Below are positions 520 through 37,654 of a stretch of 64,000 nt of DNA, in pieces (position 1 is the stretch's first letter; every line of letters starts with the position of its first letter). The translations under genes and the position numbers were made by a program. Origin of the DNA: a virus; IMG/VR virus record IMGVR_UViG_3300023184_003179, positions 1 to 64,000 of that record. One strand, given 5' to 3'. The notes under the pieces were generated by a model that saw nothing but the letters and a program-made list of their open reading frames with translations, made no database searches and was not told the origin of the DNA.

Positions 520-670
520 AGATGGAATAAAATCAATACTTCTTGATATTGGACAGGATTTAAAAGTTCATAAACTAGATACGGACAATTATATTATTGA
601 TATAGAATATGACAAGTATACGATTAGAGTTATGGAATTATTTAAAGAATATTTAGAAGATAATGGCTAA
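494..670 (+). CDS. Hypothetical protein, 58 aa (not in ORF track)
   Basis: Manual translation MRFNLKNLEDGIKSILLDIGQDLKVHKLDTDNYIIDIEYDKYTIRVMELFKEYLEDNG; fills the gap and overlaps both neighbours. Confidence 0.6.
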   Translation: MRFNLKNLEDGIKSILLDIGQDLKVHKLDTDNYIIDIEYDKYTIRVMELFKEYLEDNG

Positions 671-1619
671 TATAGTTTTTCTTGGTAACTTTGAGGTATC
701 TTATAGTAGTGAGAATCATCATGCTAAGTCTTTAGAGTCTCTTGGACATACCGTTGAAAAATTGCAAGAAAAGAAAGCAACAAGCAAACAAATATTAAAA
801 AAAGCATTGCAGTCAAACCTATTTATATGGGTTCACACACATAGATGGAATACACCAGGATCAATTCTAATGGATGAAGTACTAAGACAATTAAACTCTG
901 CTGGTATTCCTACCATGACATACCATCTTGATTTATGGTTTGGAATTGAACGACAAAAAGATTTAGAGAATGATAACTTTTATAAAACAATTGGTCATTT
1001 CTTTACAGTTGATAAACTAATGGCTGATTGGTTTAATGAAAACACAAATGTAAAAGGACACTTTATTCCTGCTGGTGTTTATGATAAAGAATGTTATATA
1101 CATTCTGATTACGATGTTAATAATTTTGAAAATGATGTAATATTTGTTGGCAGCAGAGGCTATCATCATGAACATAAATATCGTCCAGAACTAATAGACT
1201 TTTTAAGAAAAACATATGGTAAAAGATTTCTTCATGTTGGTGGAGATGGGGATACTGGAACTGTTCGTGGAGATGCTTTAAATCGTATCTACGCAAAAAG
1301 CAAAGTAGCGATAGGAGATAGTTTAAATATTAACTTTAACTATCCTTACTACACTAGTGATAGGCTATTTGAAAGTACTGGTCGTGGTGGCTTTACCATT
1401 TACCCTCGTATTAAAGGTCTTGAAGAGTATTTTGAAGATAATAAAGAGATTATATTTTATGAGCATGGAAACTTTGATGATTTAAAAACAAAAATAGATC
1501 AATATCTTTTTGATGGAGTATCAAGAGAAAACATAAGAGTAAATGGGCATGAAAGAACAAAGAAAGAACATACCTATGTACACAGATGGGATGCAATAAT
1601 CAGAGAGTTGGGTATATAG
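663..1619 (+). CDS. Glycosyltransferase, GT-B fold (CgeB/YkvP-like)
   Basis: DVIFVGS, LNRIYAKSKVAIG, SDRLFE..GRGGF and HTYVHRW motifs. Confidence 0.8.
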   Translation: MANIVFLGNFEVSYSSENHHAKSLESLGHTVEKLQEKKATSKQILKKALQSNLFIWVHTHRWNTPGSILMDEVLRQLNSAGIPTMTYHLDLWFGIERQKDLENDNFYKTIGHFFTVDKLMADWFNENTNVKGHFIPAGVYDKECYIHSDYDVNNFENDVIFVGSRGYHHEHKYRPELIDFLRKTYGKRFLHVGGDGDTGTVRGDALNRIYAKSKVAIGDSLNINFNYPYYTSDRLFESTGRGGFTIYPRIKGLEEYFEDNKEIIFYEHGNFDDLKTKIDQYLFDGVSRENIRVNGHERTKKEHTYVHRWDAIIRELGI

Positions 1620-2548
1620 TGAAAAGCATAGCAATTACTGGAGCAACTGGACTGCTTGGTTCTCATTTATCAAACCATTATCTTTCTTTGGGCTGGGATG
1701 TTTTTGTATTATTAAAGGATGAGCATAGCCGTACAGAACTTTCTAAAGATGTAAACAAGGTATATGGAAGTATTAATAATAAAATAGACATTGATTTCTT
1801 TATAGAAAAGTCAAGACCAGATTATTTTATTCATCTTGCAGCACAAACACAAGCATATGATTCAATCAAGTACCCATACAGTACTTTTTATACAAATGTA
1901 ATTGGCACACTAAATGTTCTTGAATCATTAAGAGAGTATAAAAAATGTAAATCAATTATCGTTGCATCTAGCGATAAAGCCTATGGTGAATTAACTAAAG
2001 ATGAATACTTTGAAGATCATATTTTAAATGGAGTTTATCCATATGATGCCTCTAAATCAATCACAGATATCATTTGTAACTCCTACAGAAATACTTACGA
2101 TATGCCTGTTATAACTACTCGTGCATGCAACATTTATGGAACTGGTGATAACAATGTTCAACGATTGATCCCTGGAATTGTAAGGGCATATAAAAACGAC
2201 GTATTATTTACCATAAGAAATGCTGGTAGAGATATTAGAGAGTATATAAATGTTAAAGATGTTGTGTCAGCATACTCCAACATACTTACATACGGAGAAA
2301 CAATTAATAACATTCCATCATTTAATATATCTTCTGGCGAAAGATATTCAACTCTTGAAGTATTTAACATTGTGCAAGACGTAATTGGTAAAAAAGTTAG
2401 ACATGAGATAGTTGCAAGTGATGGATTTGAAATTAAAAAACAATTTATGAATTCATCCTTACTACAAGAAAAAACTGGGTGGAAGTCAGAACATACTATG
2501 AAAGATACAATGAAAGAAATAGTTGATTTTTACATGGAGAACAAATGA
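1619..2548 (+). CDS. NAD-dependent NDP-sugar dehydratase/epimerase (CDP-glucose 4,6-dehydratase-like)
   Basis: ITGATGLLG, HLAAQ, ASSDKAYG, YxxSK (YDASK), RACNIYGTGD; likely GTG start at 1619. Confidence 0.85.
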   Translation: MKSIAITGATGLLGSHLSNHYLSLGWDVFVLLKDEHSRTELSKDVNKVYGSINNKIDIDFFIEKSRPDYFIHLAAQTQAYDSIKYPYSTFYTNVIGTLNVLESLREYKKCKSIIVASSDKAYGELTKDEYFEDHILNGVYPYDASKSITDIICNSYRNTYDMPVITTRACNIYGTGDNNVQRLIPGIVRAYKNDVLFTIRNAGRDIREYINVKDVVSAYSNILTYGETINNIPSFNISSGERYSTLEVFNIVQDVIGKKVRHEIVASDGFEIKKQFMNSSLLQEKTGWKSEHTMKDTMKEIVDFYMENK

Positions 2549-3054
2549 ATATAAACTTTGGATGTGGAAGCATTCAGCCACCTGATTGGATTAATATAGA
2601 TCTTGATCCAGAATATAAAACAGAACATAAAAACTTACATCTCATTACAGATGCATCAGCAGACATAATTGTTTCCCATGCAACAATTTGTTCAATACGG
2701 TATCATGAAATTAAAGCAACTTTATTAGAATTTTATAGAGTTTTAAAACCTAATGGAATACTTAGAATTAGTCTGCCAGATATTATTTCTGGATTTGATG
2801 CATATAAAAATAACAACATGAACTTTTTTCCTAACTCTGAGCATAATTTAGATAGACGTTTTTCTTCTTGGTTAACTTGGTATTCAACATCAGTATCATT
2901 ATTAACTGAAAAAGCATTAGAATATAAACTAAGTGATAGTGGATTTAAAAATATAACAAAAACACAATACAAACAAACCACATTTTCAAATAATAAATCT
3001 TATGAACTTGATACAAGAGAACATGAATTTTATTTTATTGAGGCAACCAAATGA
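2545..3054 (+). CDS. Class I SAM-dependent methyltransferase-like protein
   Basis: NFGCG..WINIDL, EFYRVLKPNGILRISLPD. Confidence 0.75.
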   Translation: MNINFGCGSIQPPDWINIDLDPEYKTEHKNLHLITDASADIIVSHATICSIRYHEIKATLLEFYRVLKPNGILRISLPDIISGFDAYKNNNMNFFPNSEHNLDRRFSSWLTWYSTSVSLLTEKALEYKLSDSGFKNITKTQYKQTTFSNNKSYELDTREHEFYFIEATK

Positions 3055-3758
3055 CAGGAATGATTAAGGCAACACTTAATGGTGAATTTGAAATGTTTCT
3101 TCCAAAGCATCGTGCAGACAGACCAGATTGGTATGAACCTGATGGATGGGAAAAACCTAGACTAAAATCAATGCATAATAATATTACCAATGGCGATGTT
3201 GTTTATTATGTTGGTGCAGAAGAAGGAGAGTTTCCAGCACTTTGTCAAATGTGGGGAGCAGAAGTAGTTTTATTTGAACCAAACCCCAAAGTATGGTCAC
3301 ATTTTCCTGCAACTTGGACTGCAAATAATTTAGAACTTCCATTAGTTTGTATTCCTGGATTTGCTTCTGATAAAATAAACAGCCTTGCACGTATTTATTA
3401 TAATGAATGGCCACCAGAAGTTGATAATGAACTTATAGCAGCACATGGATTTAAAGAGTTATATCTTGAAGGTGATTCATATGGTCAAATTACTATAGAT
3501 TCATGTGTATATGATCACGGGATTAAACCACCTACCGCAATTTCTTTAGATGTAGAAGGTAGTGAATGGCGAGTCTTAGGAGGGGCTGAGAAGGTTCTTA
3601 AAGAGTATAAGCCTAAGATATGGCTATCTGGACATCCTGAATTTATGTTGCAACAATGGAATGAATCTTTATATAATCTTAGACAATGGATAAAAGAATT
3701 GGGTTACAAAGAAGTATTACTTGACTATCAACATGAGGTTCATTTATTTTATGAATAG
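3051..3758 (+). CDS. FkbM-family methyltransferase
   Basis: VYYVGAEEG, VLFEPNP, ITIDS, SLDVEGSE. Confidence 0.8.
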   Translation: MTGMIKATLNGEFEMFLPKHRADRPDWYEPDGWEKPRLKSMHNNITNGDVVYYVGAEEGEFPALCQMWGAEVVLFEPNPKVWSHFPATWTANNLELPLVCIPGFASDKINSLARIYYNEWPPEVDNELIAAHGFKELYLEGDSYGQITIDSCVYDHGIKPPTAISLDVEGSEWRVLGGAEKVLKEYKPKIWLSGHPEFMLQQWNESLYNLRQWIKELGYKEVLLDYQHEVHLFYE

Positions 3759-4368
3759 TCTTATTTTTTCTCCACACACAGACGATGCAATTTTTTCTTT
3801 AGGCGATCATATCATTGATAATGATCATAATTTTACTATTGCATCCGCATTTGCTGGGATACCAACAGATGATGTTGGATATAAAAAACACACTACGTTG
3901 AGACAGGAACATTCTGAAGCCTGTTCTATGATTAATGCTAAAGTTATTAATGGAGACTTATTAGATGATGTTTATGGAAAACAGAATGAAGATGATTTAA
4001 CTAATTGGATAAAAAATACTATAATAAATTTTGACAATGTATATATTCCATTGGGAATTCATCATCCAGATCATGTTTTTTTATCAGATATTTTATTCAA
4101 TTTAATGAAAGATTTTAATAAAACATATTTTGTTTATGCTGAGTTACCATATAGATTATTATATCCAGAATTACATAGAACAAGATTAAGAATCTTTGAA
4201 TCAAACCATATTTTAGAAAATGTTAGTATTAACTTTACACAACATAAAATTAATGCAATAAAAAAATATAACTCACAGATAACATACGCACAAAATCCAT
4301 CATACATAGATGAAGATTTAATTGGTAAACTTGTTGTAGAAGAAAAACTTTGGAGAGTAGTAAATTGA
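3751..4368 (+). CDS. PIG-L/LmbE-family N-deacetylase
   Basis: SPHTDDA, RQEH, GIHHPDH, YAELPY, YNSQ; likely start at 3751. Confidence 0.8.
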   Translation: MNSLIFSPHTDDAIFSLGDHIIDNDHNFTIASAFAGIPTDDVGYKKHTTLRQEHSEACSMINAKVINGDLLDDVYGKQNEDDLTNWIKNTIINFDNVYIPLGIHHPDHVFLSDILFNLMKDFNKTYFVYAELPYRLLYPELHRTRLRIFESNHILENVSINFTQHKINAIKKYNSQITYAQNPSYIDEDLIGKLVVEEKLWRVVN

Positions 4369-5213
4369 TAAATGCATACTTATACTCTTTTAATGAAGAG
4401 GATTGTGCTGCTGATAAATGGGATTATGGTCTTCTCAAAGAAGTTTTTGATAAATATAATATAGATCAAATAAAAGTAACTTCTATTCCTAAAGTTGATC
4501 GTGGATTTGTTGTTGTTCCTGGACCACAAAATCTTGGATACGAAGATAATGTTAACAAAGAAATACAAAACCTTTCTAGACTTGTGTTATTTATTACGGG
4601 GGATGAAGAAAGCAGATTTGATATAAGTAAGATTAACCATCCTAATGCTGAAATATGGGTTCAATATTTTAATGAAAGCAATAAACAATATAATAAATTG
4701 CCTATTGGAGTCCCCCAACATTTAAAACAATTTATTCCAGATTATCCTATTAAGAATTATGATTTATATTTTGGTGGTCAAATAACTCATTCAAGAAGAA
4801 AACAGTTGGCAAAGGCTATAGAGACAATGCCAAATACCCTTTATAAGCCTACAGCAGGCTTTGCACAGGGCGATCAGGCAATAGACTACTACCGCAACCT
4901 TGCTAGTGCTAGGATTGCTCCAGCACCATCTGGGGCAGTTACAATAGATTCCTTTAGATTTTTTGAGGCTATAGAAATGTTATGTTTACCAATAGGAGAT
5001 AGTGTTGATTCAAAAAATAGGAATATTGATTTTTATAATATTTTGTTTGAAGGAAATATACCAGTTAATTTTGTTTCTAATTGGGCTGATTTACGTTTTT
5101 TGGTTCCTGAACTATTAAATCAATACCCTCACAATATGCATAAGGTGGTATGCTGGTGGATAAAGTATAAGCGAGATCTTGGAATAAAACTAATGAGGCA
5201 AATTAATGAATAA
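4365..5213 (+). CDS. Exostosin-like (GT47-like) glycosyltransferase
   Basis: YFGGQ..RRK, YYRNLASARIAPAPSG, SFRFFEAIEMLCLPI; likely TTG start overlapping the upstream stop. Confidence 0.6.
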   Translation: MINAYLYSFNEEDCAADKWDYGLLKEVFDKYNIDQIKVTSIPKVDRGFVVVPGPQNLGYEDNVNKEIQNLSRLVLFITGDEESRFDISKINHPNAEIWVQYFNESNKQYNKLPIGVPQHLKQFIPDYPIKNYDLYFGGQITHSRRKQLAKAIETMPNTLYKPTAGFAQGDQAIDYYRNLASARIAPAPSGAVTIDSFRFFEAIEMLCLPIGDSVDSKNRNIDFYNILFEGNIPVNFVSNWADLRFLVPELLNQYPHNMHKVVCWWIKYKRDLGIKLMRQINE

Positions 5214-5967
5214 AAATGATGTAACAATTATTTTAGCAACATCTGTTTTACCAAGTCACCCAGACACAAAAATTATTGATGAAACTATTAAATCTATTAG
5301 GTTTCATTTTCCAAAAAATGAAATCATAATGCAAATTGATGGATTACGAAGAGAACAAATGGATCGTGAAATAGATTACAATGAATATAAAAATAAAATT
5401 CTTTGGAAATGTATGCATGAATATCAGAACATACTTCCAATAATATTTGATAAGCATAGTCATCAAAGCACAATGATGCGTAAGACTATTGATGATATTC
5501 AAACATCTGTTTTGCTTTATGTTGAAGGTGATGCCCCACTAACTACAGATGTAGAGATTGATTGGCAAAAATGTTTTGATATGCTTGGATATGAAAAAGC
5601 AAATACAATTCGTTTTCACCATGAATCTTTTATACCAGAGCCACACAATCATTTAATGTTTGGCTTTGATGATTGTTTTATTAGAACGTCTCAGTGGAGT
5701 CAAAGACCACACCTTAGCAAGGTTTCATATTATAGAGAAGTAATACTTCCACCACTTGAAGATAAAGTATTTATTGAAGATACAACTCATGGAAGAATTC
5801 AAGATGAAATTTCTCCATATAATAATTTTAACAAAGAGGGTTGGGATAAACATAAATTATGGATATACCATCCAGAAGGAAACATTAAAAGATCTTATCA
5901 TTTAGATGGTCGTGAAAATGGAAGAAAGTTTACATCAGATGATGATGTTTGGTTTAATAAAAAATGA
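5206..5967 (+). CDS. GT-A fold glycosyltransferase-like protein
   Basis: N-terminal VTIIL strand, LYVEGD acidic motif, WSQRPH, HLDG; operon context. Confidence 0.55.
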   Translation: MNKNDVTIILATSVLPSHPDTKIIDETIKSIRFHFPKNEIIMQIDGLRREQMDREIDYNEYKNKILWKCMHEYQNILPIIFDKHSHQSTMMRKTIDDIQTSVLLYVEGDAPLTTDVEIDWQKCFDMLGYEKANTIRFHHESFIPEPHNHLMFGFDDCFIRTSQWSQRPHLSKVSYYREVILPPLEDKVFIEDTTHGRIQDEISPYNNFNKEGWDKHKLWIYHPEGNIKRSYHLDGRENGRKFTSDDDVWFNKK

Positions 5968-7001
5968 GACTAGGAATTATTGCTAGATCAGATAACACTG
6001 GACTTGGAAATCAAACAAAAGAACTTGTTGATATGCTAAAGCCAGATAAAATATTACTAATAGATTCAACACCATTTAATAAAAATAAACAGCACCCAGA
6101 ATGGTACAGCGAATATAACTGTATTAGATCAACTGGATTTCCAACCTTACAACAAATAAAACTATTTCTTGCTGATATTGATGTTGTTATTAGTTGTGAA
6201 ACATTTTATGATCAAAACTTTATAAAATATGCAAAAAAATATGGTGTAAAAACTATACTTCAATACAATTATGAACTTTTTGCAAATCTAGCAGCACCAA
6301 ACCTTGCACTACCAGATGTTCTTTTATCTCCAAGCGTTTGGCATATTGATCATGTTAAAAAACTTTTTCGCAACCAAACTAAAGTTATACATTTGCCACC
6401 ACCAACCAATTCTTTAACTTTTTCTAACGCTAAAGAAATAAACATGTCAAAATCGCATAGCAGACTTTTGCATATTGCTGGTAAAAAAGCAGCAAAAGAT
6501 AGAAATGGAACTAATAGTGTTCTTGAAATGCTTAAATATTCTAAAGCAGATTATGAATTAGTTATTAGAAGCCAGAGTGAAATAGAAACAAATATTAAAG
6601 ATTCAAGGCTTACGATAGAGATAGACAACATAAAGGATAGAGAAGATATGTATAGTGGATTTGATGCTATGGTTCTTCCTAGACGATATGCTGGTCTTTG
6701 TTTACCTATGAATGAGGCTCTTATGAGTGCCCTGCCAGTTTTTATGACTGACATATCTCCTAATAACGCAATCCTGCCAAAAGAATGGTTAGTTAAATCT
6801 CATTCTTTGGGTACTTTTAGAACAAAGGCTAGAATTGAATTATTTGAAGCAGATATAAAAACTTTTGCAATGACTATTGATGATTACTTTATTAATCAAG
6901 ATAAGAATATAAATAAACAAAATGCATTTAATATAGGATATACAAACTTTGCACCAGAAAATTTAAACAATAGTTATTTAGATATTATTTCTCATATTTA
7001 G
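5964..7001 (+). CDS. Glycosyltransferase, GT4-like
   Basis: TGLGNQ start; YSGFDAMVLPRRYAGLCLPMNEALMSALPV nucleotide-sugar binding region. Confidence 0.8.
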   Translation: MRLGIIARSDNTGLGNQTKELVDMLKPDKILLIDSTPFNKNKQHPEWYSEYNCIRSTGFPTLQQIKLFLADIDVVISCETFYDQNFIKYAKKYGVKTILQYNYELFANLAAPNLALPDVLLSPSVWHIDHVKKLFRNQTKVIHLPPPTNSLTFSNAKEINMSKSHSRLLHIAGKKAAKDRNGTNSVLEMLKYSKADYELVIRSQSEIETNIKDSRLTIEIDNIKDREDMYSGFDAMVLPRRYAGLCLPMNEALMSALPVFMTDISPNNAILPKEWLVKSHSLGTFRTKARIELFEADIKTFAMTIDDYFINQDKNINKQNAFNIGYTNFAPENLNNSYLDIISHI

Positions 7002-7677
7002 TTTTTTTAATAAATTTTTCTTTAAGTATATTATTTAATATTATATCAAATGAATTATCAGCACTTGATAAATACACATGTTCATCTTTATTTATGTTAT
7101 ATGATTTTAAAACTAATGGACCTTTGCTGTAAACCTTTACATCTTCCATTTGCTCTCCACCTACAGCAAATACATTTCCGTATATAGATCTCCACAAAAA
7201 TGAATCATTGTCTTCAAGCGTTTGCTTTAATTTTTTCTTTTCCATAACCATAGGTATATGTAGTTCATAGTCAAGTGGATTTTCAATGCCAAGTGATTTA
7301 ATTTTTTTATATGTAGATGCAAGTTTTCTAGTATAGTTTGAGTTTGAATTTATTTTTTGATATAAATTTATTTTATCTAAAAGCAAACCACCGTGATATG
7401 TTTTAATTGAATTAATATTTTTTATAATATAAAAGTCATCATTCATTAATATAAATTTTTCAGATATTTCGTTTGAGTTGCATATTGCACGAAGGTTTTG
7501 AATTGCATTCCTATACTTTGTTAATACTTGTCTAACATTTATATAGTTTCCAGCATACCAACTTGGCTTACCACCAACAATCCATATTTTTGAGTCTGGA
7601 AAACTTTCAACAACAGATCTAATTGAATACCTTAGTTCTTCATTGACTCCATCTTTACATATATAAACAAAATCCAT
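6985..7677 (-). CDS. Stealth-like sugar-1-phosphate transferase
   Basis: DFVY, EELRYSIRS, KPSW, FILMNDDFY, ELHIP match Stealth conserved regions. Confidence 0.6.
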   Translation of the reverse strand: MDFVYICKDGVNEELRYSIRSVVESFPDSKIWIVGGKPSWYAGNYINVRQVLTKYRNAIQNLRAICNSNEISEKFILMNDDFYIIKNINSIKTYHGGLLLDKINLYQKINSNSNYTRKLASTYKKIKSLGIENPLDYELHIPMVMEKKKLKQTLEDNDSFLWRSIYGNVFAVGGEQMEDVKVYSKGPLVLKSYNINKDEHVYLSSADNSFDIILNNILKEKFIKKTKYEK

Positions 7678-7690
7678 GTTTCCTCATTAT

Positions 7691-7739
7691 AAAAATTAAG
7701 AAAGGCGAACTTATTTTAAGTAAATTCGCCCTTCCTAAT
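7691..7739 (-). terminator. Intrinsic terminator
   Basis: Minus-strand stem AGGAAGGGCGAATTT/AAGTTCGCCTTTCTT followed by a T-rich tract. Confidence 0.7.
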
Positions 7740-7746
7740 TAACTAA

Positions 7747-8031
7747 CTACTTCTTTTTAGCAGCAGCCTTTTTCTTTTTTGGTGCACTCTTAACAGGCAC
7801 AATTTTACCAAGAGCATCTGAAATTGCTCCTGTATCTGGCAATACGCCAAAAGCCTTGTCATTAGGATTAAGTGCTCTCAATGCAACGGGTGCAAGGGCA
7901 GCAACTAATGCAGCCCAAAGATCTTTAGGATCTGTTACGCCAGCCATATAAAGTGCAATGACTGATCCAAGAACAGATCGTCCGTATGATGCAAGCATTG
8001 CCTTTGTTTTATCGTTTAGTATGTTATTCAT
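7747..8031 (-). CDS. Holin-like small membrane protein
   Basis: Start MNNILNDK after GGAGG; two hydrophobic segments; basic Lys/Ala tail. Confidence 0.55.
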   Translation of the reverse strand: MNNILNDKTKAMLASYGRSVLGSVIALYMAGVTDPKDLWAALVAALAPVALRALNPNDKAFGVLPDTGAISDALGKIVPVKSAPKKKKAAAKKK

Positions 8032-8039
8032 TATTCCTC

Positions 8040-8198
8040 CTAGGATATAATTCGTGTTATCGTTGTGAAGCCAATCCATAAACCAATAATTCCTGCGACT
8101 CCCGCAAAAACTGGTGGTGCTGGAACTGGCAATTTGAGTGCTGCGAACACGACACCGCACCCAAAACCTGTTAATATAGAAAAAAATATTTCTTTCAT
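8040..8198 (-). CDS. XapX/DUF1427-like small membrane protein, 52 aa (not in ORF track)
   Basis: MKEIFFSILTGFGCGVVFAALKLPVPAPPVFAGVAGIIGLWIG; P-x-PAPP between two helices. Confidence 0.75.
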   Translation of the reverse strand: MKEIFFSILTGFGCGVVFAALKLPVPAPPVFAGVAGIIGLWIGFTTITRIIS

Positions 8199-8201
8199 TT
8201 T

Positions 8202-8561
8202 TTAATCCTTTGTTATATTTTCTGGAAGTAATTCCATAAGTTTTTTTGAGTAATGATTAAGACCTTGATTTTTTAATTCTTCTGAAACTTCTTTAATTGT
8301 TTTTTGAGATGTTTCAATATATTCAAATGCCCAATCTCTTGAGTCAGATAAGAATTTTATAAAGTTTTCCTTATGTACTACATCGTCAGACTGAGTGTCA
8401 ATGTTTTTATTTTGAAGAATAATCTCTTTTAATCCTTCATTTTCAAGGAACAGTTTTGTAATAGCAAGATTACATTTTTTTAATTTATCAAATAAAGATA
8501 AATATGCAATTGCAAAAGATATTGACATTGTTGCAAAAAACATTAAAATACCAGTTCTCAT
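8202..8561 (-). CDS. Hypothetical protein with N-terminal TM helix
   Basis: ORF track; TACAAT 7 nt upstream of ATG. Confidence 0.7.
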   Translation of the reverse strand: MRTGILMFFATMSISFAIAYLSLFDKLKKCNLAITKLFLENEGLKEIILQNKNIDTQSDDVVHKENFIKFLSDSRDWAFEYIETSQKTIKEVSEELKNQGLNHYSKKLMELLPENITKD

Positions 8562-8591
8562 ACTATCTATTGTACTCTATTCTGTAAGGTA

Positions 8592-8723
8592 TTAAAAATC
8601 ATCTTCTTCAATATTAAATAAATCTAGTTCAGATAGTCTGCTCATTCTTGAAGCAAAAAACAAAGAAAATGCAATAATGCTTGAAATTATTGCTAATATT
8701 AATATTGTTATCTTTTTTTTCAT
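8592..8723 (-). CDS. 43-aa single-TM peptide (not in ORF track)
   Basis: MKKKITILILAIISSIIAFSLFFASRMSRLSELDLFNIEEDDF; ATGA coupling. Confidence 0.55.
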   Translation of the reverse strand: MKKKITILILAIISSIIAFSLFFASRMSRLSELDLFNIEEDDF

Positions 8724-8839
8724 TTTTCTATTGTTCCTCCACATCTTAAACATCCCATATAGGTTTTACCAGTAAATGGACAGGATCCAGCATCAAACAA
8801 GTTATGTTTTTTAATCTTACAAATAAGTAACTTAATCAT
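8720..8839 (-). CDS. 39-aa Cys/His peptide (not in ORF track)
   Basis: MIKLLICKIKKHNLFDAGSCPFTGKTYMGCLRCGGTIEK; overlaps both neighbours. Confidence 0.55.
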   Translation of the reverse strand: MIKLLICKIKKHNLFDAGSCPFTGKTYMGCLRCGGTIEK

Positions 8840-18025: not shown

Positions 18026-18109
18026 AGCCCTACACAGGCATTCCAGGCACGATAGCCAGGGAATATATAGAAAGGTAACTACTCCATCCCAAGGTCCTGT
18101 GTAGGGACT
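18026..18109 (-). ncRNA. Candidate structured small RNA (three-way junction)
   Basis: 11-bp perfect closing helix 18028-18038/18096-18106, two internal hairpins, TATAAT 6 nt upstream. Confidence 0.55.
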
Positions 18110-18121
18110 ATCTACATTATA

Positions 18122-18535
18122 CTACTTGATCTTAATAGACTTAGGCTTTTTTTCTTCTGGAACAATTCTATCAATATTAATTGTTAGCATGCCATCCCTA
18201 AGTTCAGCACCAGTTACTTCCATATATTCACCAAGAGCAAATGTACGTGTAAATTTACGAGCAGCAATTCCCTTATGAACAACTTCAGCATCTGTTACTT
18301 CTACAAGTTCTCCTTTAATGACAAGAGATCCATTGTCAATAGAAACATCAATGTCTTCTTTTGTAAATCCTGCAACAGCAAGAGATAGGCGATATGTATC
18401 TTCATCTAATTTAAGAAGATCATATGGAGGATATGATTGGTTGTTTGTTTTATATACGTTGTTTAACTGTGTTAGGTTTCTATTAAACCCAATAAAAAAA
18501 GGGTCATTAAAAATGGCCCATGGATCGTTCATCAT
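18122..18535 (-). CDS. Small heat-shock protein (Hsp20/IbpA-like)
   Basis: YPPYD, LAVAGF, HKGIAARKFTRTF.L, A.L.DGML.I, PEEKKP..I.I. Confidence 0.92.
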   Translation of the reverse strand: MMNDPWAIFNDPFFIGFNRNLTQLNNVYKTNNQSYPPYDLLKLDEDTYRLSLAVAGFTKEDIDVSIDNGSLVIKGELVEVTDAEVVHKGIAARKFTRTFALGEYMEVTGAELRDGMLTINIDRIVPEEKKPKSIKIK

Positions 18536-18601
18536 GTTATTCCCCTTTCAAGCGAATAAGTTAATGTACCCCCTTTTGGCAGGTACTTAATAATTATATC
18601 A
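18536..18601 (-). promoter_or_regulatory. TGATATAAT promoter plus two-hairpin 5' UTR, ROSE-like RNA thermometer
   Basis: GTACCTGCC-AAAA-GGGGGTAC hairpin, then TTATTCGCTT-GAA-AGGGGAATAA hairpin burying the SD opposite UCGCU. Confidence 0.6.
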
Positions 18602-18607
18602 TATAAA

Positions 18608-19306
18608 TTATAAAAGGTTTTCATTTATTTCTTTTAAAATATATTTTTTACCTTTAAAAATATTATAAAAACTATCCAAACTACCTAATTTTGACTGTGA
18701 ATTTGCAAGCAAATGTCCATCAATCATTTTTTGTAGTTTATCTGTCATTACAAATTGTTTAAAATTAATATTCTCTTTAGTGTGAAATCTTAGATAATAC
18801 ATTACATCTTGATTTTTGACAGAAAAAGTATTAAAGTCTTTTTTTAATATAAAAGATAGTTCTAAATTACGAAACCATTTTCCTATATCATATTTACCTG
18901 GCAAAATCATACATCTTTCAGTTATTGCATTTTCTTCAAATATTGGATGTTCGTATGCTGTCATCTCTAGACTTTTTTCATCGGTAAAAAAAATATACTT
19001 ATTAAGATAACTAAAAAATTTTTTTTCCATTGACCTAACTGAAACATGATCATCAAAAAATTTTTGATCATGCATTTCAGAAAAACAAGAATTATTTTCT
19101 ATAGTAAAAGAGTAATTATATAATGACTTTACAGCATATAAGTTTTTTAATGAACCATTAAAAGATGGACAATGATTTACTGCTAATGGAGTTCTATAGT
19201 CATCATCTTTTATTTTTTTTTCATAAAATCTTTTGCTTACTTTTTCTGGCTCTTCTGCTCTTATCCAATCATCTTCAAGACAAGACCAATATACTGTTAT
19301 TGCCAC
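18608..19306 (-). CDS. DUF6065-like (dUTPase-like fold) protein, diverged paralog
   Basis: HCPSF, ILPGKYDIGKWFRNL, DVMYYLRF; same layout as 20375..21061. Confidence 0.5.
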   Translation of the reverse strand: MAITVYWSCLEDDWIRAEEPEKVSKRFYEKKIKDDDYRTPLAVNHCPSFNGSLKNLYAVKSLYNYSFTIENNSCFSEMHDQKFFDDHVSVRSMEKKFFSYLNKYIFFTDEKSLEMTAYEHPIFEENAITERCMILPGKYDIGKWFRNLELSFILKKDFNTFSVKNQDVMYYLRFHTKENINFKQFVMTDKLQKMIDGHLLANSQSKLGSLDSFYNIFKGKKYILKEINENLL

Positions 19307-19339: not shown

Positions 19340-19411
19340 TAGCCCTACAGAGAATTGAACTCTGCTCACCAAGATGAAAGCCTGGTATCCTGACCACTAG
19401 ACGATAGGGCC
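19340..19411 (-). tRNA. tRNA-Glu(TTC)
   Basis: Acceptor GGCCCTA/TAGGGCT; anticodon arm CCAGG-CT-TTC-AT-CTTGG; T loop TTCAATT. Confidence 0.9.
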
Positions 19412-19412
19412 T

Positions 19413-19488
19413 TGGAGCGGAAGACGAGACTTGAACTCGCAACAATCTGCTTGGAAGGCAGAAACTCTACCAATTGAGTTACTTCCGC
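19413..19488 (-). tRNA. tRNA-Gly(TCC), CCA encoded
   Basis: GCGGAAG/CTTCCGC-T-CCA; anticodon arm TCTGC-CT-TCC-AA-GCAGA. Confidence 0.93.
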
Positions 19489-33193: not shown

Positions 33194-33371
33194 CAATAAA
33201 ATCCTTTTTCTTTTTCTTTTGAGGTAAAAGTCCAACTTTTGAAATATGTTTTTTTGAACACATCCATGTTGCATCCCCTGATTCAATCCAATATCTTAAA
33301 GATGTTACTTCTTCTTGACAAGTTTTACAAGGAAACTTACCAGGGTATACAGAAAACTTTTTATCAAGCAT
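33186..33371 (-). CDS. Small zinc-finger protein
   Basis: CKTC ... CSKKH. Confidence 0.65.
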   Translation of the reverse strand: MLDKKFSVYPGKFPCKTCQEEVTSLRYWIESGDATWMCSKKHISKVGLLPQKKKKKDFIDE

Positions 33372-34377
33372 TAATTATTTTTAACTTAAGTTGTTCTTGC
33401 AACTCTAAGTCTTCCTTAACTCTATTAATAAAGCCATCACGTCCTTGCACCTTTGTACCATCATCTAGTTGATACCAAGCACCAGTTCTGTTAACAAGCC
33501 CCATTGACTCTGCAGTATCAACAAGATCGCCAATTGTATCAAGCCCAATGTCATCACCTCTGAAATAAAAGTCATATTCTCCAGATTGGAAACCTGGTGA
33601 AGTTTTAGAGAATTGAAGTTCCCAGCGAATTTTTCTGCCAGTTTTTTCTTCAATTAATTTATCTCCAACTTTAATCTTACCTTTAATTGCTTGATTATCT
33701 GATTCAGAAGAAAATAGTTTTATAATGCAAGATGAATAAAACTTTGTAGCCTGTCCACCAGAAGGCTGTTGACTTGTATACATTGCATTAATATTATTGC
33801 GTGATTGAGAGATAAGCACTAACAATGTTGGCTTAACTTTATTATTAGCATAATTTAACATTTTCCAAGCATTACTAAAGTCACGAGACTCTGCACCAAT
33901 TTGTTTAGTATTTTCAAGAGCCTTCATCTCATCTGAATCTTTTTCAAAATATATTGCAGGAAGCATTGATGTAATAGAGTCTACAACAATTAAATCTACT
34001 CCAGCATTCATTAACCCAACACCAACATCAACCATATCGCTGATTGTTCTTGCTTGTGAATAAATTAATTTAGTTGGATCTACACCCAATTGTTTTGCCC
34101 AGTCTTCAGAGTAAGACATTTCTGAATCAATCCATGCACAAACTTTGCCTTCTTTTTGTGCTAATGCAATCATTTGTAGACACATTGATGATTTGGCTGA
34201 AGACTTGCTTCCCCAAATAAGAACTTGACGACCATATGGAAGTCCACCACCTAATGCACGATTCAATCCAAAACTTGGAGTTGGTTGATACTCAAAAGTA
34301 ATTCCTTCTCCTGTACTTAAACGCTTACGCAATCTGGGATCTAGTTGTGCTAATACATCTTCTACGCTAACTGACAT
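33364..34377 (-). CDS. recA: RecA-like recombinase
   Basis: LGGGLPYGR, GSKSSAKS (variant Walker A), WIDSE, VVDSI, PSGG, GAWY. Confidence 0.9.
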   Translation of the reverse strand: MSVSVEDVLAQLDPRLRKRLSTGEGITFEYQPTPSFGLNRALGGGLPYGRQVLIWGSKSSAKSSMCLQMIALAQKEGKVCAWIDSEMSYSEDWAKQLGVDPTKLIYSQARTISDMVDVGVGLMNAGVDLIVVDSITSMLPAIYFEKDSDEMKALENTKQIGAESRDFSNAWKMLNYANNKVKPTLLVLISQSRNNINAMYTSQQPSGGQATKFYSSCIIKLFSSESDNQAIKGKIKVGDKLIEEKTGRKIRWELQFSKTSPGFQSGEYDFYFRGDDIGLDTIGDLVDTAESMGLVNRTGAWYQLDDGTKVQGRDGFINRVKEDLELQEQLKLKIINA

Positions 34378-37300
34378 TTACATCCTCCATTATTACTGTG
34401 CCATCTTTTGTTTTGCCAAAACTAAATCTATAAGCGTTTCCTTCTTGAATATGCATATACGCTTTTGGAAATGCAGTTGGAAATACTGTAACAGAATGCA
34501 AATCTCTTGCAGTATCTGCTAAAGTAAGCGATGCCATTTTTTTTCCAGTTTTTGTAATTCTTGATTTAAAAGAAACAACAAACATTTCATCATCTTTGTA
34601 TGGCAGTTGTTTATAGTTTAAAAATTTTACAAGAGCATCTGATGAACTTTTTAATTCATCAACTGGTATTGCAGACAAAATACGATTATCACTTACTAAA
34701 ATCAAACAAGTTTTTCCAGTTTCAATTTTTGTTTGTTCTTCGTCAAAAATTCCAACACTACCAGTCTTATCAAGTATTTCAACTCTTGACCAGCCTTTAC
34801 CACGTTTAATTGATTTAACCATGCCCATAATGATAAATGATCCTTTTTCTTCAAAATCTTCAATTGGTTGAATAAAGGCATAATAGTGCGAAGGAACTGT
34901 AATATTAAATTCTGGAAGATTTAAATATTCATATAGGTTTTCTTTAATTTCATTGTCGTTACGTGGATTATCAACAAAAGTTGCTGCTCCAGTTAATCTT
35001 AATGCGCTTAGTGCTCTACTGTTTACTCCATTACCTTTAGTAAATGTAAACTCTTCAAGTTCTTTGTAAGTAGCAAATGGTCTTGCTGCAATATATTTAG
35101 ATGCAATATTATCTGAAATAAATTTAATTCCAGTTAGTCCAAAACGAATTCCCTTACCTTCAATTTTAAAATCTAGATCTGAATCATTAATGTGTGGAAG
35201 TTTAACTGAAATACCCATGCGTTTTGCTTCAATTAAATATTCTGTACGACCATCTTTATCTTTTTCATTTTTAAGAAGGGCAAACATAAACTCTAACGGA
35301 TAGTAGTATTTGAGCCACGCTGTCCAATACGAGAGAGTACTGTAAGCAACGGCATGCGATTTGTTAAACGAGTAGCCTGCATGTGCTTCAAAATCATGCC
35401 ACAAATCCAAAGCGGAATTAGGAGTAATATACCTAGAGGCACCAGTAACAAACCTATCACGGAATTCATCAAATTCTTTCGCATCTTTTTTCTTTCCAAT
35501 AATTTTACGAACTTTGTCAGCCTCTGCCATTGTCATTCCACCTAGATGAACGCAAGCCTGCATAACTTGTTCCTGATATAGAATACACCCATATGTATCG
35601 CTAGTAAAATCTTTCATAATTTGATGTATATAAGATACATTTTGCTTACCGTGTTTACGAGCAATATAGTCTTTACCAATTGTATTCATTGCTCCTGGAC
35701 GCACTAGTGCATTTGAGGCTGCTAGTTCATTAAAATTCTTTACCCCCATTTTTACTAGAAGGTTTGTGTATGGAGTTGCTTCACACTGAAACACACCCTT
35801 AGTGTATCCATCAGAAAGCATCTCATAAATCTTTGAATCTGCCATGTCAAGAGTAAGTAGGTCAACATCTACATAGTGATTTTCTTTAATCATAGATACT
35901 GCATCTTGAATAACGCTCAAAGTTTTTAGTCCAAGAGCATCAATTTTAATTAAGCCAATTTTTTCTGCTTCACTCATATCAATTCCAACAACAGGAATTC
36001 TTTCATCTGATCCTGGTGACGAACGAGTTTCTAATGGAGCATATCTAAATATTGGATCTTTACTTGTTACAACTCCTGCTGCGTGAATTCCAGTACCACG
36101 AATTCTTCCACGTAACTGATCTCCATATATAACAACTTCTGGATATTTTTCTCTAAACCAAACAGTATTCTTGGATGTGCAAAACTCATCCCAAGTATCA
36201 ACAAGTTTAAGAACTTTATTAACATCTGTTAAAGGAATATCAAGAACTCTAGAAACGTCTCTTACTACTCCTTTATCTTTAAATTCAAGGAATGTAGCAA
36301 TAGATGCAACGTGTCTATACTGTCTAACTAAATAATCTTTTACATCATCACGTCTTGTGTCTTGAATATCTGTATCAATATCAGGAAAGTCATTACGCTC
36401 TGGATTAATAAATCTAAAGAAAAGAAGTCCGTGTTCTAATGGATCAATATCTGTAATTCCAAGTAGATAACAAACTAATGATCCAGCAGAAGAACCACGA
36501 CCAGGACCAACCATGATGTTTTCTTTTTTAGCCCAAGAAATCATATTTTGAACTACAAGAAAATATGGTGCAAACTTTTTATCCCGAATAATTGCAAGTT
36601 CTTCGTCTAATCTTTGTTCATAAATGTCATTGCCGAGCCAATTAGAGTTAAGTCTTTTTTCTTCTAATGCAGTAAATGCTAAGTTTGCCAACTCTTGATC
36701 TGGATTTTTATATTGAACTGGAAGAAGGTTTAACCCATCTTTAATGTCATAGTCTTCTACTGTATCTGCTAATTTTAATGTATTGTTGTAAATATCTGTC
36801 CTATTAATACCCTGCGCTTCCATAGCAGACTTAATTTCTTCATATGACAACAAGTGAATATCAAATTTGTTAAAGGTAATTTGACGATCTTCTCCATAAA
36901 GATAGTCAAGGCGAGACATCATATTTTCTTTCTTTTTAGACTTTTCATATGATGCTTCTTTATTTACTTTAGCATGTGTATTCATGAGTAATTTAAACTC
37001 TTGAATCTCTCTTTGAGATGTGTCTGAATGGTGGCAGTCTGGAGTTACAACAACATCAATTTTAAATTCATCAGCAAGTTCAATAAGATGTTTATTAATT
37101 TCTGGAGTGTTGTGTGGCATAACCTCAATGTAATAATCACTACCAAAAGTATCTTTAAACCACTGTATATGTTTCTTTGCAAGAGCAAATTCATTTTCTT
37201 CAAGCGCCTTTACAATAACGCTACTTGGACATGCAGAGGTTACAATAATTCCTTCTCTGTATTTTTTAAGAATTTCAAAGTCAAACCTTGGCTTTTTAAA

Positions 37301-37654
37301 AAATCCGTCTGTCCATGCTATTTCACTAATTTTATTTAAATTTTCTAAACCTAATTGGTTCTTGGCTAGAAGGACTATATGGTTATAGACAAGATCTTGT
37401 TGACCTTTTCTTTCAGACTTATCTCTGCGGTCAGAGATGTCTGCACACATATAGCCTTCTAGACCAAGTATTGGCTTAATACCCTTTTCTTTTGCAGCAC
37501 GGTACATTTCTCTGTGACCAGATAGTGAACCATGATCTGTAATTGCAAGAGCGGTCATACCCAACTTGCTAGCACGGTCAACGTACTCTTGTGGAGTCGC
37601 TACGCCGTCAAATAGGGAGTAGTGAGTATGAACATGTAAGCCTACGTAACTCAT
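34367..37654 (-). CDS. dnaE: DNA polymerase III alpha subunit
   Basis: PHP HVHTHYS, GRGSSAGS, PDIDTD, GIHAAG, KIDALGL, YSFNKSHA. Confidence 0.95.
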   Translation of the reverse strand: MSYVGLHVHTHYSLFDGVATPQEYVDRASKLGMTALAITDHGSLSGHREMYRAAKEKGIKPILGLEGYMCADISDRRDKSERKGQQDLVYNHIVLLAKNQLGLENLNKISEIAWTDGFFKKPRFDFEILKKYREGIIVTSACPSSVIVKALEENEFALAKKHIQWFKDTFGSDYYIEVMPHNTPEINKHLIELADEFKIDVVVTPDCHHSDTSQREIQEFKLLMNTHAKVNKEASYEKSKKKENMMSRLDYLYGEDRQITFNKFDIHLLSYEEIKSAMEAQGINRTDIYNNTLKLADTVEDYDIKDGLNLLPVQYKNPDQELANLAFTALEEKRLNSNWLGNDIYEQRLDEELAIIRDKKFAPYFLVVQNMISWAKKENIMVGPGRGSSAGSLVCYLLGITDIDPLEHGLLFFRFINPERNDFPDIDTDIQDTRRDDVKDYLVRQYRHVASIATFLEFKDKGVVRDVSRVLDIPLTDVNKVLKLVDTWDEFCTSKNTVWFREKYPEVVIYGDQLRGRIRGTGIHAAGVVTSKDPIFRYAPLETRSSPGSDERIPVVGIDMSEAEKIGLIKIDALGLKTLSVIQDAVSMIKENHYVDVDLLTLDMADSKIYEMLSDGYTKGVFQCEATPYTNLLVKMGVKNFNELAASNALVRPGAMNTIGKDYIARKHGKQNVSYIHQIMKDFTSDTYGCILYQEQVMQACVHLGGMTMAEADKVRKIIGKKKDAKEFDEFRDRFVTGASRYITPNSALDLWHDFEAHAGYSFNKSHAVAYSTLSYWTAWLKYYYPLEFMFALLKNEKDKDGRTEYLIEAKRMGISVKLPHINDSDLDFKIEGKGIRFGLTGIKFISDNIASKYIAARPFATYKELEEFTFTKGNGVNSRALSALRLTGAATFVDNPRNDNEIKENLYEYLNLPEFNITVPSHYYAFIQPIEDFEEKGSFIIMGMVKSIKRGKGWSRVEILDKTGSVGIFDEEQTKIETGKTCLILVSDNRILSAIPVDELKSSSDALVKFLNYKQLPYKDDEMFVVSFKSRITKTGKKMASLTLADTARDLHSVTVFPTAFPKAYMHIQEGNAYRFSFGKTKDGTVIMEDVNVS

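Follow-up and report, generated by a model that had tools for sequence, protein, structure and literature searches.

The tRNA region of phage T4 encodes two small stable RNAs of unknown function, species 1 and 2 (rnaC/rnaD), and carries the homing endonuclease gene segB in the same cluster. Two further types of system join an RNA to a nuclease: IscB, a protein of several hundred residues with a RuvC domain, whose HEARO/omega-RNA is far longer than the RNA described below and has a variable guide, and the type III toxin-antitoxin systems (ToxIN), in which tandem direct repeats are followed by the gene of a ToxN-type endoribonuclease. For the tRNA arrays of mycobacteria and mycobacteriophages, HNH genes are reported as the commonest coding genes in the stable-RNA clusters, and extra non-tRNA structured RNAs as further components of these actinobacterial and mycobacteriophage arrays (PMC5966550). 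The element studied here lies on the minus strand of a stretch of viral DNA of 64,000 nt (the window), which is the first 64 kb of IMG/VR record IMGVR_UViG_3300023184_003179, an 88.6-kb virus estimated to be 78% complete; it is a structured RNA of ~85 nt placed between an hsp20 gene and the gene of a 91-aa HNH protein.

We consider it very probable that this element is a real, separately promoted, structured RNA gene. A trans-acting phage RNA with a conserved partner, accompanied by the HNH gene as a selfish companion, is the interpretation that we favour as a whole, with some reserve, and on the narrower point of a trans action of the RNA on some partner besides the HNH protein our judgement is evenly balanced. 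The element resembles species 1 and 2 of T4 in being a highly structured, non-tRNA phage RNA near tRNA genes with a homing-type endonuclease as neighbor; it differs from them in showing no sequence or model relationship (Rfam scans were empty), in its freshwater actinophage lineage, in having its own promoter whereas the T4 RNAs are processed from a tRNA precursor, and in its nearly obligate linkage to the nuclease gene. With HEARO/omega-RNA and IscB it shares the arrangement of a conserved structured RNA immediately upstream of an HNH nuclease gene as a mobile pair; however, the protein is here a bare 91-aa HNH core and the RNA has no variable segment, so that neither the RuvC-plus-HNH protein nor the long guide RNA of those systems was found. 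The order of promoter, structured RNA, partial terminator and nuclease gene is also that of ToxIN, from which the locus differs in having no tandem repeats (Tandem Repeats Finder returned 0 rows on 17600-18700) and in that the gene downstream encodes an HNH DNA nuclease with its own promoter, so that it lacks the features of a type III antitoxin RNA. The tRNA arrays are similar in their actinobacterial or actinophage setting and in their HNH genes beside structured RNAs, and different in that the structured RNA reported from them measures ~430 nt, against 79-86 nt here, and in that the present locus is a fixed two-gene unit with one particular 91-aa HNH (PMC5966550). An orphan stable RNA in a phage tRNA region beside a homing nuclease is already known, and what is new is the RNA family itself and its near-obligate pairing with a minimal HNH.

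Structure and conservation of the RNA

On the minus strand, the hsp20 stop codon (18124-18122) is followed by TATAAT (18121-18116), 7 nt, G-U and a perfect closing helix of 11 bp, P1, formed by CCCTACACAGG (18106-18096) and CCTGTGTAGGG (18038-18028), which encloses two hairpins, P2 and P3 (Table 1). The sequence and coordinates of the element given in the initial annotation, a reading of the letters without database searches, were confirmed, and its three-way-junction RNA of ~85 nt proved essentially right in structure. In ViennaRNA the three-way junction is both the minimum free energy (MFE) and the centroid structure, at -38.2 kcal/mol against a shuffle mean of -28.3 (standard deviation 3.5, z -2.8), and 1 of 200 dinucleotide shuffles of the minus strand folded equally well. 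The plus strand reaches -32.4 kcal/mol with a z of -2.9, and since in z terms it folds about equally well, the strand is not identified by folding alone. The element has 51% G+C against 33.9% for the genome and contains no open reading frame (ORF) of 30 aa or more, as had been noticed at the outset, and it is present in a single copy, with one match of the covariance model described below (R1) in the 88.6-kb record and one in the window. One part of that first description did not hold: its first hairpin, ATGGAGTAG and CTTTCTAT around a 4-nt loop, is not the conserved pairing, and the relatives support instead a pairing of GAUGG with CC(N)AUY, separated by a loop of 8-11 nt that contains an invariant UAGUUAC.

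Table 1. Positions of the RNA element, its parts and the adjoining genes in the window
Feature	Position	Strand	Basis or remark
HNH gene, minimal endonuclease of 91 aa	17724..17999	-	phrog_2255 'HNH endonuclease', E 1.7e-21
-10 box of the HNH gene, within TGATATAAT, extended -10 type	18008..18013	-	8 nt before ATG; same layout in relatives
Structured RNA, three-way junction	18026..18108	-	R1 covers all 84 model positions
P1, 3' arm (CCUGUGUAGGG), then weak U tail CUUAUAC	18028..18038	-	Covariation; tail count
P3, variable hairpin AUUCC-CU-GGC-UAUCGU-GCC-U-GGAAU	18040..18064	-	Upper 3 bp 100% paired where aligned
P2, 3' strand CCUUUCU (anti-Shine-Dalgarno-like stretch of the initial annotation)	18069..18075	-	Paired in MFE fold
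P2, loop and closing CC, AG-UAGUUACC, with UAGUUACC invariant	18074..18083	-	Motif counts
Junction J1/2 and P2 5' strand, ACCUU-GGGAUGG, with invariant CUURG and GAUGG	18084..18095	-	Motif counts
P1, 5' arm (CCCUACACAGG)	18096..18106	-	Covariation in A1 and in the R1 alignment
-10 box of the RNA gene, TATAAT	18116..18121	-	Directly after hsp20 stop codon
hsp20 gene	18122..18535	-	Pfam HSP20, E 1.4e-18; stop TAG 18124-18122
tRNA-Glu and tRNA-Gly genes	19340..19488	-	1.2 kb upstream of the RNA

Relatives were collected from viral contigs along several routes. At least 592 relatives of hsp20 were found, 80 of which served as the hsp20-sampled loci; the exact pair of P1 arms gave 60 further stretches, and blastn of the element matched 91 of these 140 loci. 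Loci from all routes are cited below by L numbers. A MAFFT alignment of 61 distinct sequences with their flanks (A1) was made, and the covariance model R1 was built from 42 core sequences. A scan for the motif CCTT..GATGG..TAGTTACC brought in at least 119 more stretches, in which R1 had 83 matches, 55 of them distinct. Finally, at least 589 relatives of the HNH protein were found, and the best 80, with 82-93% protein identity, constitute the HNH-sampled loci. Altogether, well over 100 contigs of uncultured viruses share the fold, with 70-86 nt from P1 to P1 and no hypervariable end among the members.

The covariation that the initial annotation had left to be looked for in homologues turned out to be strong. 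In A1, P1 is paired in 100% of the cells, with double changes at 5 of the 11 pairs, and the three-helix model is 93.9% paired overall, compared with 22-51% when the 3' partners are slid. Among the 55 distinct sequences from the motif scan, 99.7% of the P1 cells are paired and both sides have changed at 10 of the 11 pairs; in the R1-fitted alignment the whole structure is 95.1% paired, against 23-51% with partners slid by 1-3 columns, and none of 500 shuffles equalled the observed pairing values. A1 provides the more neutral pairing count because the R1-based alignment follows the model. As a helix, P2 has weak support, being 89-94% paired with changes that are mostly one-sided, and its register in the clade of the window is one base off from the majority. 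The loop of P3 varies, and other clades swap in different hairpins, one of them capped by GCAA. These comparisons of sequence show P1 and P3 to be scaffolds, free to change while staying paired. In P1, 11 cells hold G-U and 1 holds A-C, and this excess of G-U identifies the minus strand as the RNA strand; the window itself gives an R1 score of 97.4 bits (E ~1e-25) on its minus strand and 18.9 bits on its plus strand, and the members give 46-106 bits forward against 18-24 bits in reverse.

The nucleotides that do not vary lie elsewhere. Throughout A1, TAGTTACC is invariant and ACCTT-RG-GATGG is nearly so. In the hsp20-sampled and HNH-sampled loci, both drawn independently of the motifs, CTTRG is present in 23/23 and 25/25 distinct members, GATGG in 22/23 and 24/25, and TAGTTACC in 23/23 and 24/25, respectively. 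The counts place the invariant parts of the RNA in the junction (CUURG), in the GAUGG strand and in the P2 loop (UAGUUACC). The combination CCUUGGGAUGG-NN-UAGUUACC recurs within another RNA of ~100 nt, with a closing stem of 13 bp, that lies directly upstream of tRNA genes in L169, L208 and L218 (around position 530-640 of each locus), and L064:1908-2010 carries both motif halves in reverse order. As the two motifs recur in other RNA scaffolds, they are to be taken as the functional part, which does not tell the binding partner.

The RNA fits no catalogued class. None of the 4227 models of Rfam 15 matched the element at gathering scores, as its description as unannotated had implied; with E up to 10 on 17900-18250, two chance matches appeared, both outside the element, and int-alpA (RF02996) had no match to the element at E up to 10. 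In 20 related loci with other RNAs after hsp20, Rfam reported only tRNAs and matches below threshold. No account of such an RNA was found among the titles and abstract openings of the literature searched. The element had no blastn match in the collection of isolated phages, and a strict motif scan of bacterial contigs, one genome per species, gave 2 stretches, neither of which is the RNA. Several known kinds of RNA were considered and rejected: a tRNA, transfer-messenger RNA (tmRNA) or armless tRNA (ARAGORN was negative at the element and, run on 8 diverse members with its bacterial, relaxed, mitochondrial and tmRNA settings, found no gene); a hammerhead ribozyme (the core CTGANGA occurs in 0 of 82 distinct members, and Rfam gave no match); a box C/D RNA (box C in 0 of 82 members); and a guide of an RsmI-like methyltransferase (no TP_methylase match in the 78%-complete record). 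Repeated promoter-plus-stem-loop elements of the T4 type (PeSL) occur in several copies per genome, and were rejected with the one copy in the 88.6-kb record.

Promoter and linkage to the HNH gene

Among 81 distinct 35-nt contexts upstream of the RNA, 78 contain a -10 hexamer (TANNNT) that ends 3-8 nt before position 1 of the model, as TACAAT in 45, TATAAT in 23 and other forms in 10, and TGn stands just upstream, giving an extended -10, in 28. Two of the three exceptions have an extra hairpin module between the promoter and the junction, and the third is a truncated RNA. The box is kept behind hsp20, behind tRNA genes (L150, L180), behind at least 3 other protein genes and behind an RNA module that contains a pseudoknot (L145, L277, L284, L322), and operon starts of the phage itself share the promoter type TGnTATAAT. 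A -10 box at a set distance, whatever the gene upstream, supports a stand-alone RNA gene, and bears out what had been proposed from the single sequence, namely an RNA with its own promoter. The genes 3' of the RNA, in the window and in relatives, carry a -10 box of their own 5-9 nt before the ATG; these genes therefore look leaderless, and the RNA does not serve as a leader for them. The promoter claimed for the next gene in the window is the one at 18013-18008.

Evidence of expression is scant. In four metatranscriptome runs, covered as assembled contigs only, which cannot show transcript ends, one contig of 151 nt and depth 2 from an RNA library spans 18025-18166, that is, the end of hsp20 and the whole element; uncovered parts and a contig end at 18009 are uninformative. 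As for the 3' end, the absence of a U tract stated in the initial annotation holds for the window and not for the relatives, as 42 of 61 have at least 5 T in the 9 nt after the P1 helix.

A point missed by the initial annotation is that, across the sampled loci, the RNA is coupled to the HNH gene downstream rather than to hsp20. The HNH ORF starts 27 nt downstream of the RNA, and its product aligns to the middle of the 211-position phrog_2255 profile, with a Pfam HNH match of just E 0.011. Of the 80 hsp20-sampled loci, 29 have the RNA and the HNH gene, 48 have neither (36 of these with enough downstream DNA) and none has the HNH gene alone; the remaining 3, with the RNA alone, end before the HNH position. 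Conversely, in 79 of the 80 HNH-sampled loci the RNA ends ~27 nt before the ATG, and the 80th has only 40 nt of upstream sequence. Presence and absence are patchy with respect to hsp20 identity (L002, at 90%, is without both and L003, at 95%, has both), and hsp20 is the most frequent neighbor on the upstream side (59 of 80 motif-sampled loci, 63 of 80 HNH-sampled loci), the remaining loci having other neighbors there. The RNA occurs without the HNH gene in L150, L151 and L175, with its motifs intact and P1 compensated. A natural broken copy was seen at L274:599-674, where a deletion has removed the RNA's 5' half together with part of hsp20 and has left the RNA's 3' half and the HNH gene in place.

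A small HNH ORF with its own -10 box, patchy presence and a conserved RNA gene adjoining it in 79 of 80 loci are the sequence features of a homing cassette, and the comparison shows a free-standing, putatively homing-type HNH gene with its own, apparently leaderless, promoter, attached 3' of the RNA gene and gained and lost with it. Over ~70 nt the HNH gene shares 79-86% DNA identity with HNH genes found in Streptomyces phages of 130 kb (e.g., NC_048720.1 79649-79719), a likeness that holds despite a very different base composition; no such RNA was found upstream of these Streptomyces phage relatives, and in Blueeyedbeauty the HNH gene comes right after a tRNA-Ser gene, near an RNA ligase. A translation brake, in which the RNA would pair with the HNH start, was tried and rejected, since 53-185 of 200 shuffled mRNA starts paired equally well in 11 of 11 representatives.

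The RNA gene is placed in the stable-RNA neighborhood of the phage, near tRNA genes. The gathering-score matches of Rfam 15 in the window are 4 tRNAs only; 22 of the 80 HNH-sampled loci have a tRNA inside their 700-nt flanks, and in relatives tRNA genes sit immediately upstream of hsp20. The public runs that contain the stretch are lake and freshwater metagenomes, and the phage encodes WhiB (13437-13724) and DUF7455 (17248-17502), because of which its host is probably a low-G+C freshwater actinobacterium; the actinobacterial host guessed at first fits these two genes. Other Pfam matches in the window are the DNA polymerase III alpha subunit, RecA, a DnaB-like helicase and a primase.

Proposed role and alternatives

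According to the interpretation that we favour, the element would be a small, stable, structured RNA of ~85 nt belonging to freshwater actinobacterial phages. As the comparative data suggest, a -10-only promoter would start its transcription at the foot of the 11-bp closing helix, and this same helix, together with a more or less U-rich tail, would probably end the transcript. The junction would present the invariant nucleotides as a putative binding site for a partner in trans, which our best guess takes to be a conserved component of the translation machinery, and the RNA gene would occupy a slot for small-RNA genes near the phage tRNA genes. The HNH gene may in turn be a selfish passenger that invaded a functional RNA gene, with which it is co-converted. 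Structured RNAs with such covariation and with invariant unpaired nucleotides nearly always have a specific role. The element represents a clearly delimited orphan RNA family, for which a covariance model and 82 distinct sequences are at hand and which is abundant in lake actinobacterial phages, where hundreds of contigs carry it. In it, nature also provides a clear case of a homing-type nuclease gene firmly attached to an RNA gene, and a new system for two old questions, the role of non-tRNA stable RNAs in phage tRNA regions and whether a minimal HNH borrows specificity from its neighbors.

Within the translation machinery, the best candidate found is helix 69 of 23S rRNA. The core ACCUU-RG-(N)-GAUGG-N-UAGUUAC is complementary to positions 1910-1931 of Escherichia coli 23S rRNA, which take in the helix 69 loop with its 3' strand and the 7 nt that follow, and an RNA directed at this site would be an antisense RNA against the host ribosome: its junction and P2 loop would pair with helix 69 and the adjacent 3' stretch, by docking on the free 50S subunit or on nascent 23S rRNA, and would modulate or block translation or assembly; a bolder version has the RNA direct the bare HNH nuclease to the rRNA gene. 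If true, it would be the first natural antisense RNA aimed at a functional center of the ribosome and a new viral route of acting on it, and we hold it to be highly doubtful. Two blocks of 7 nt, perfectly complementary and matching in their spacing, make up the complementarity together with part of GAUGG, and for 11 of 13 core variants this is the best RNAduplex site on E. coli 16S and 23S rRNA (-20.5 to -26.2 kcal/mol); the rRNA stretch is upper-case, that is, highly conserved, in the Rfam consensus of the bacterial large subunit rRNA. The nucleotides that would pair are the unpaired invariant ones, the A/G change in CUURG preserves pairing via G-U, the RNAs of L064 and of the L169 type hold the same two motifs, with both L064 blocks extended by complementary bases, and the tRNA genes around the RNA fit a theme of translation. 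In the phage's own 177 kb (both strands) the best non-self site of the core reaches -23.7 kcal/mol and no site stands out, for which reason a target inside the phage genome was rejected, as was a mimic of the 23S GTPase-associated center (helices 42-44), where R1 had no match in E. coli rrlH with filters off. However, shuffled cores equalled the helix-69 match in 10/350 and 18/350 trials, local alignment of the whole RNA was not above shuffles (87, 284 and 127 of 300), and the covariance-model match amounts to just 5.4 bits (E 2.3). Cofolding with a 41-nt rRNA fragment left 5 of 7 members without a net gain (0.0 or -0.1 kcal/mol) and gave the remaining two -2.4 and -2.7 kcal/mol, because P2 and helix 69 must both open. 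Moreover, the match was noticed post hoc and with the 23S rRNA of E. coli rather than an actinobacterial one; the 22-nt rRNA stretch had no match in two metagenome-assembled genomes, probably because rRNA operons are absent there, and the long duplexes from RNAduplex of the whole RNA with whole rRNAs, and from a first lenient alignment scoring, are meaningless. The other ribosomal mechanism, put forward speculatively in the initial annotation, was an anti-Shine-Dalgarno (anti-SD) mimic, in which CCUUUCU would compete for SD sequences and so favour leaderless phage mRNAs. CCTTTCT does occur in the window (18075-18069), and 7 of 73 phage ORFs in a crude set, those with a -10 box 4-12 nt before the start, look leaderless; yet an SD-like motif precedes 35 of the same 73, so that a phage rich in leaderless genes was an overstatement, CCUUUCU is not exposed in the window because it is the paired 3' strand of P2, of the 82 distinct members only 6 have CCTTTCT and none has CCUCC, and most have CCCAUUU or CCCAACU at the place of CCTTTCT. 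The mimic thus failed on comparison, and we find it hardly credible.

The main rival to a trans-acting RNA with a selfish companion is a true partnership, in which the RNA would work with the 91-aa HNH protein as a specificity or guide cofactor, an activator or an antitoxin-like inhibitor. It would account for the HNH gene lying 27-31 nt downstream in 29 of 29 assessable RNA-positive loci and in 0 of 36 RNA-negative ones with enough sequence, for the RNA in 79 of 80 HNH-sampled loci and for a pair that stays together behind at least 5 different upstream neighbors; the protein, moreover, is a bare HNH core that matches the middle or C-terminal part of profiles of 211-252 positions and has no recognisable DNA-binding domain, and the RNA carries invariant unpaired nucleotides. 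We nevertheless regard it as unlikely, given that the RNA is kept intact without the HNH gene in three loci, that L274 retains the gene beside a broken RNA, that the Streptomyces phage relatives do without such an RNA, that the RNA has neither a variable guide-like segment nor tandem repeats, and that its complementarity to the HNH mRNA start is no better than that of shuffles in any of the 11 representatives. Tight linkage also results from co-conversion by homing endonucleases, as in the intron-less homing of T-even phages. Rather improbable, too, is an action in cis as punctuation, with the element serving as terminator, insulator or 3'-end protector of hsp20 and as boundary of the HNH cassette, shielding the leaderless gene behind it. 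A long G+C-rich P1 followed by T-rich sequence in those 42 of 61 relatives would suit a terminator, as would the constant place, with a gene end on one side and, on the other, a promoter 5-9 nt ahead of a start codon, the RNA-library contig that crosses from hsp20 and stops at the 3' edge of the element, and the other folded modules that fill the same place in relatives. However, a terminator needs no promoter of its own at a fixed distance, as in the 78 of 81 contexts, and no 20 invariant unpaired nucleotides in a three-way junction; the window has no U tract and no terminator was called in it, and the element also follows tRNA genes and small-RNA modules that have U-rich tails of their own. 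An invariant junction and one invariant loop amid variable helices, with a stable-tetraloop hairpin in some clades, is also the typical pattern of an aptamer or ribozyme, and P1 with its U-rich tail could link folding to termination; a new class of ligand-sensing aptamer or self-cleaving ribozyme, in which the invariant nucleotides would make up a pocket or active site and the formation of P1 would decide termination or cleavage, is very improbable all the same, as the RNA is the leader of no consistently regulated gene, given the separate promoters of the genes downstream, as it matched no known riboswitch or ribozyme model, and as the hammerhead core is missing in 82 of 82 members.

Several observations weigh against a separately promoted, trans-acting RNA with a selfish HNH companion. 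A sigma-70 consensus scan that requires a -35 box detected nothing at the element, and neither did a terminator scan, the tail CUUAUAC having 3 U in 7 nt. The 151-nt contig starts inside hsp20 and crosses the whole element, and so fits read-through at least as well as a separate RNA, and a 3' untranslated region form or DNA carry-over equally well. Alignments A3 and A4 were fitted to the model, which inflates their pairing counts; the near-perfect linkage to the HNH gene could mean a functional partnership rather than hitch-hiking; and helix 69, the best candidate for the partner, goes only marginally beyond chance.

Other RNAs in the slot and further genes of the window

Relatives that lack the three-way junction have an H-type pseudoknot in the same slot, ~30-110 nt after the hsp20 stop (L002, L012 at 1915-1990, L019-L022, L026, L029, L030 and others). 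Its layout is a short stem, the loop CUGAGCA (or CUGGACA, CUAGGCA, CUAAGCA), the stem's 3' strand, AAAC and a segment complementary to the loop, and by eye the loop and its downstream partner covary; it comes after a TATAAT box and runs directly into the SD sequence and ATG of a CHAP-like gene, and Rfam is empty there. Judging from these loci, the pseudoknot looks like a second uncatalogued RNA motif. Larger modular RNAs also follow hsp20, of ~130 nt in L005, L027, L048 and L081 and of ~110 nt in L023, L063, L069 and L080, in which different 5' hairpin modules are fused to the pseudoknot module, and in L013 and L170 it is the three-way junction to which a hairpin module is attached. In L145, L277, L284 and L322, the pseudoknot RNA and the three-way-junction RNA stand in tandem, each with its own -10 box, as a small-RNA gene array.

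Elsewhere in the window, a long run of genes for the modification of sugars or small molecules extends from 663 to 13440, with WhiB at its end. It contains several glycosyltransferases, an NAD-dependent epimerase/dehydratase, FkbM-type and other methyltransferases, a PIG-L deacetylase, a nucleotidyltransferase-HAD fusion and, at 8832-10433, a protein of the tryptophan halogenase family (Pfam E 3e-102). The DNA polymerase III alpha subunit (34367-37654) is full-length, with PHP, NTPase, finger and HHH domains, and RecA lies at 33364-34377.

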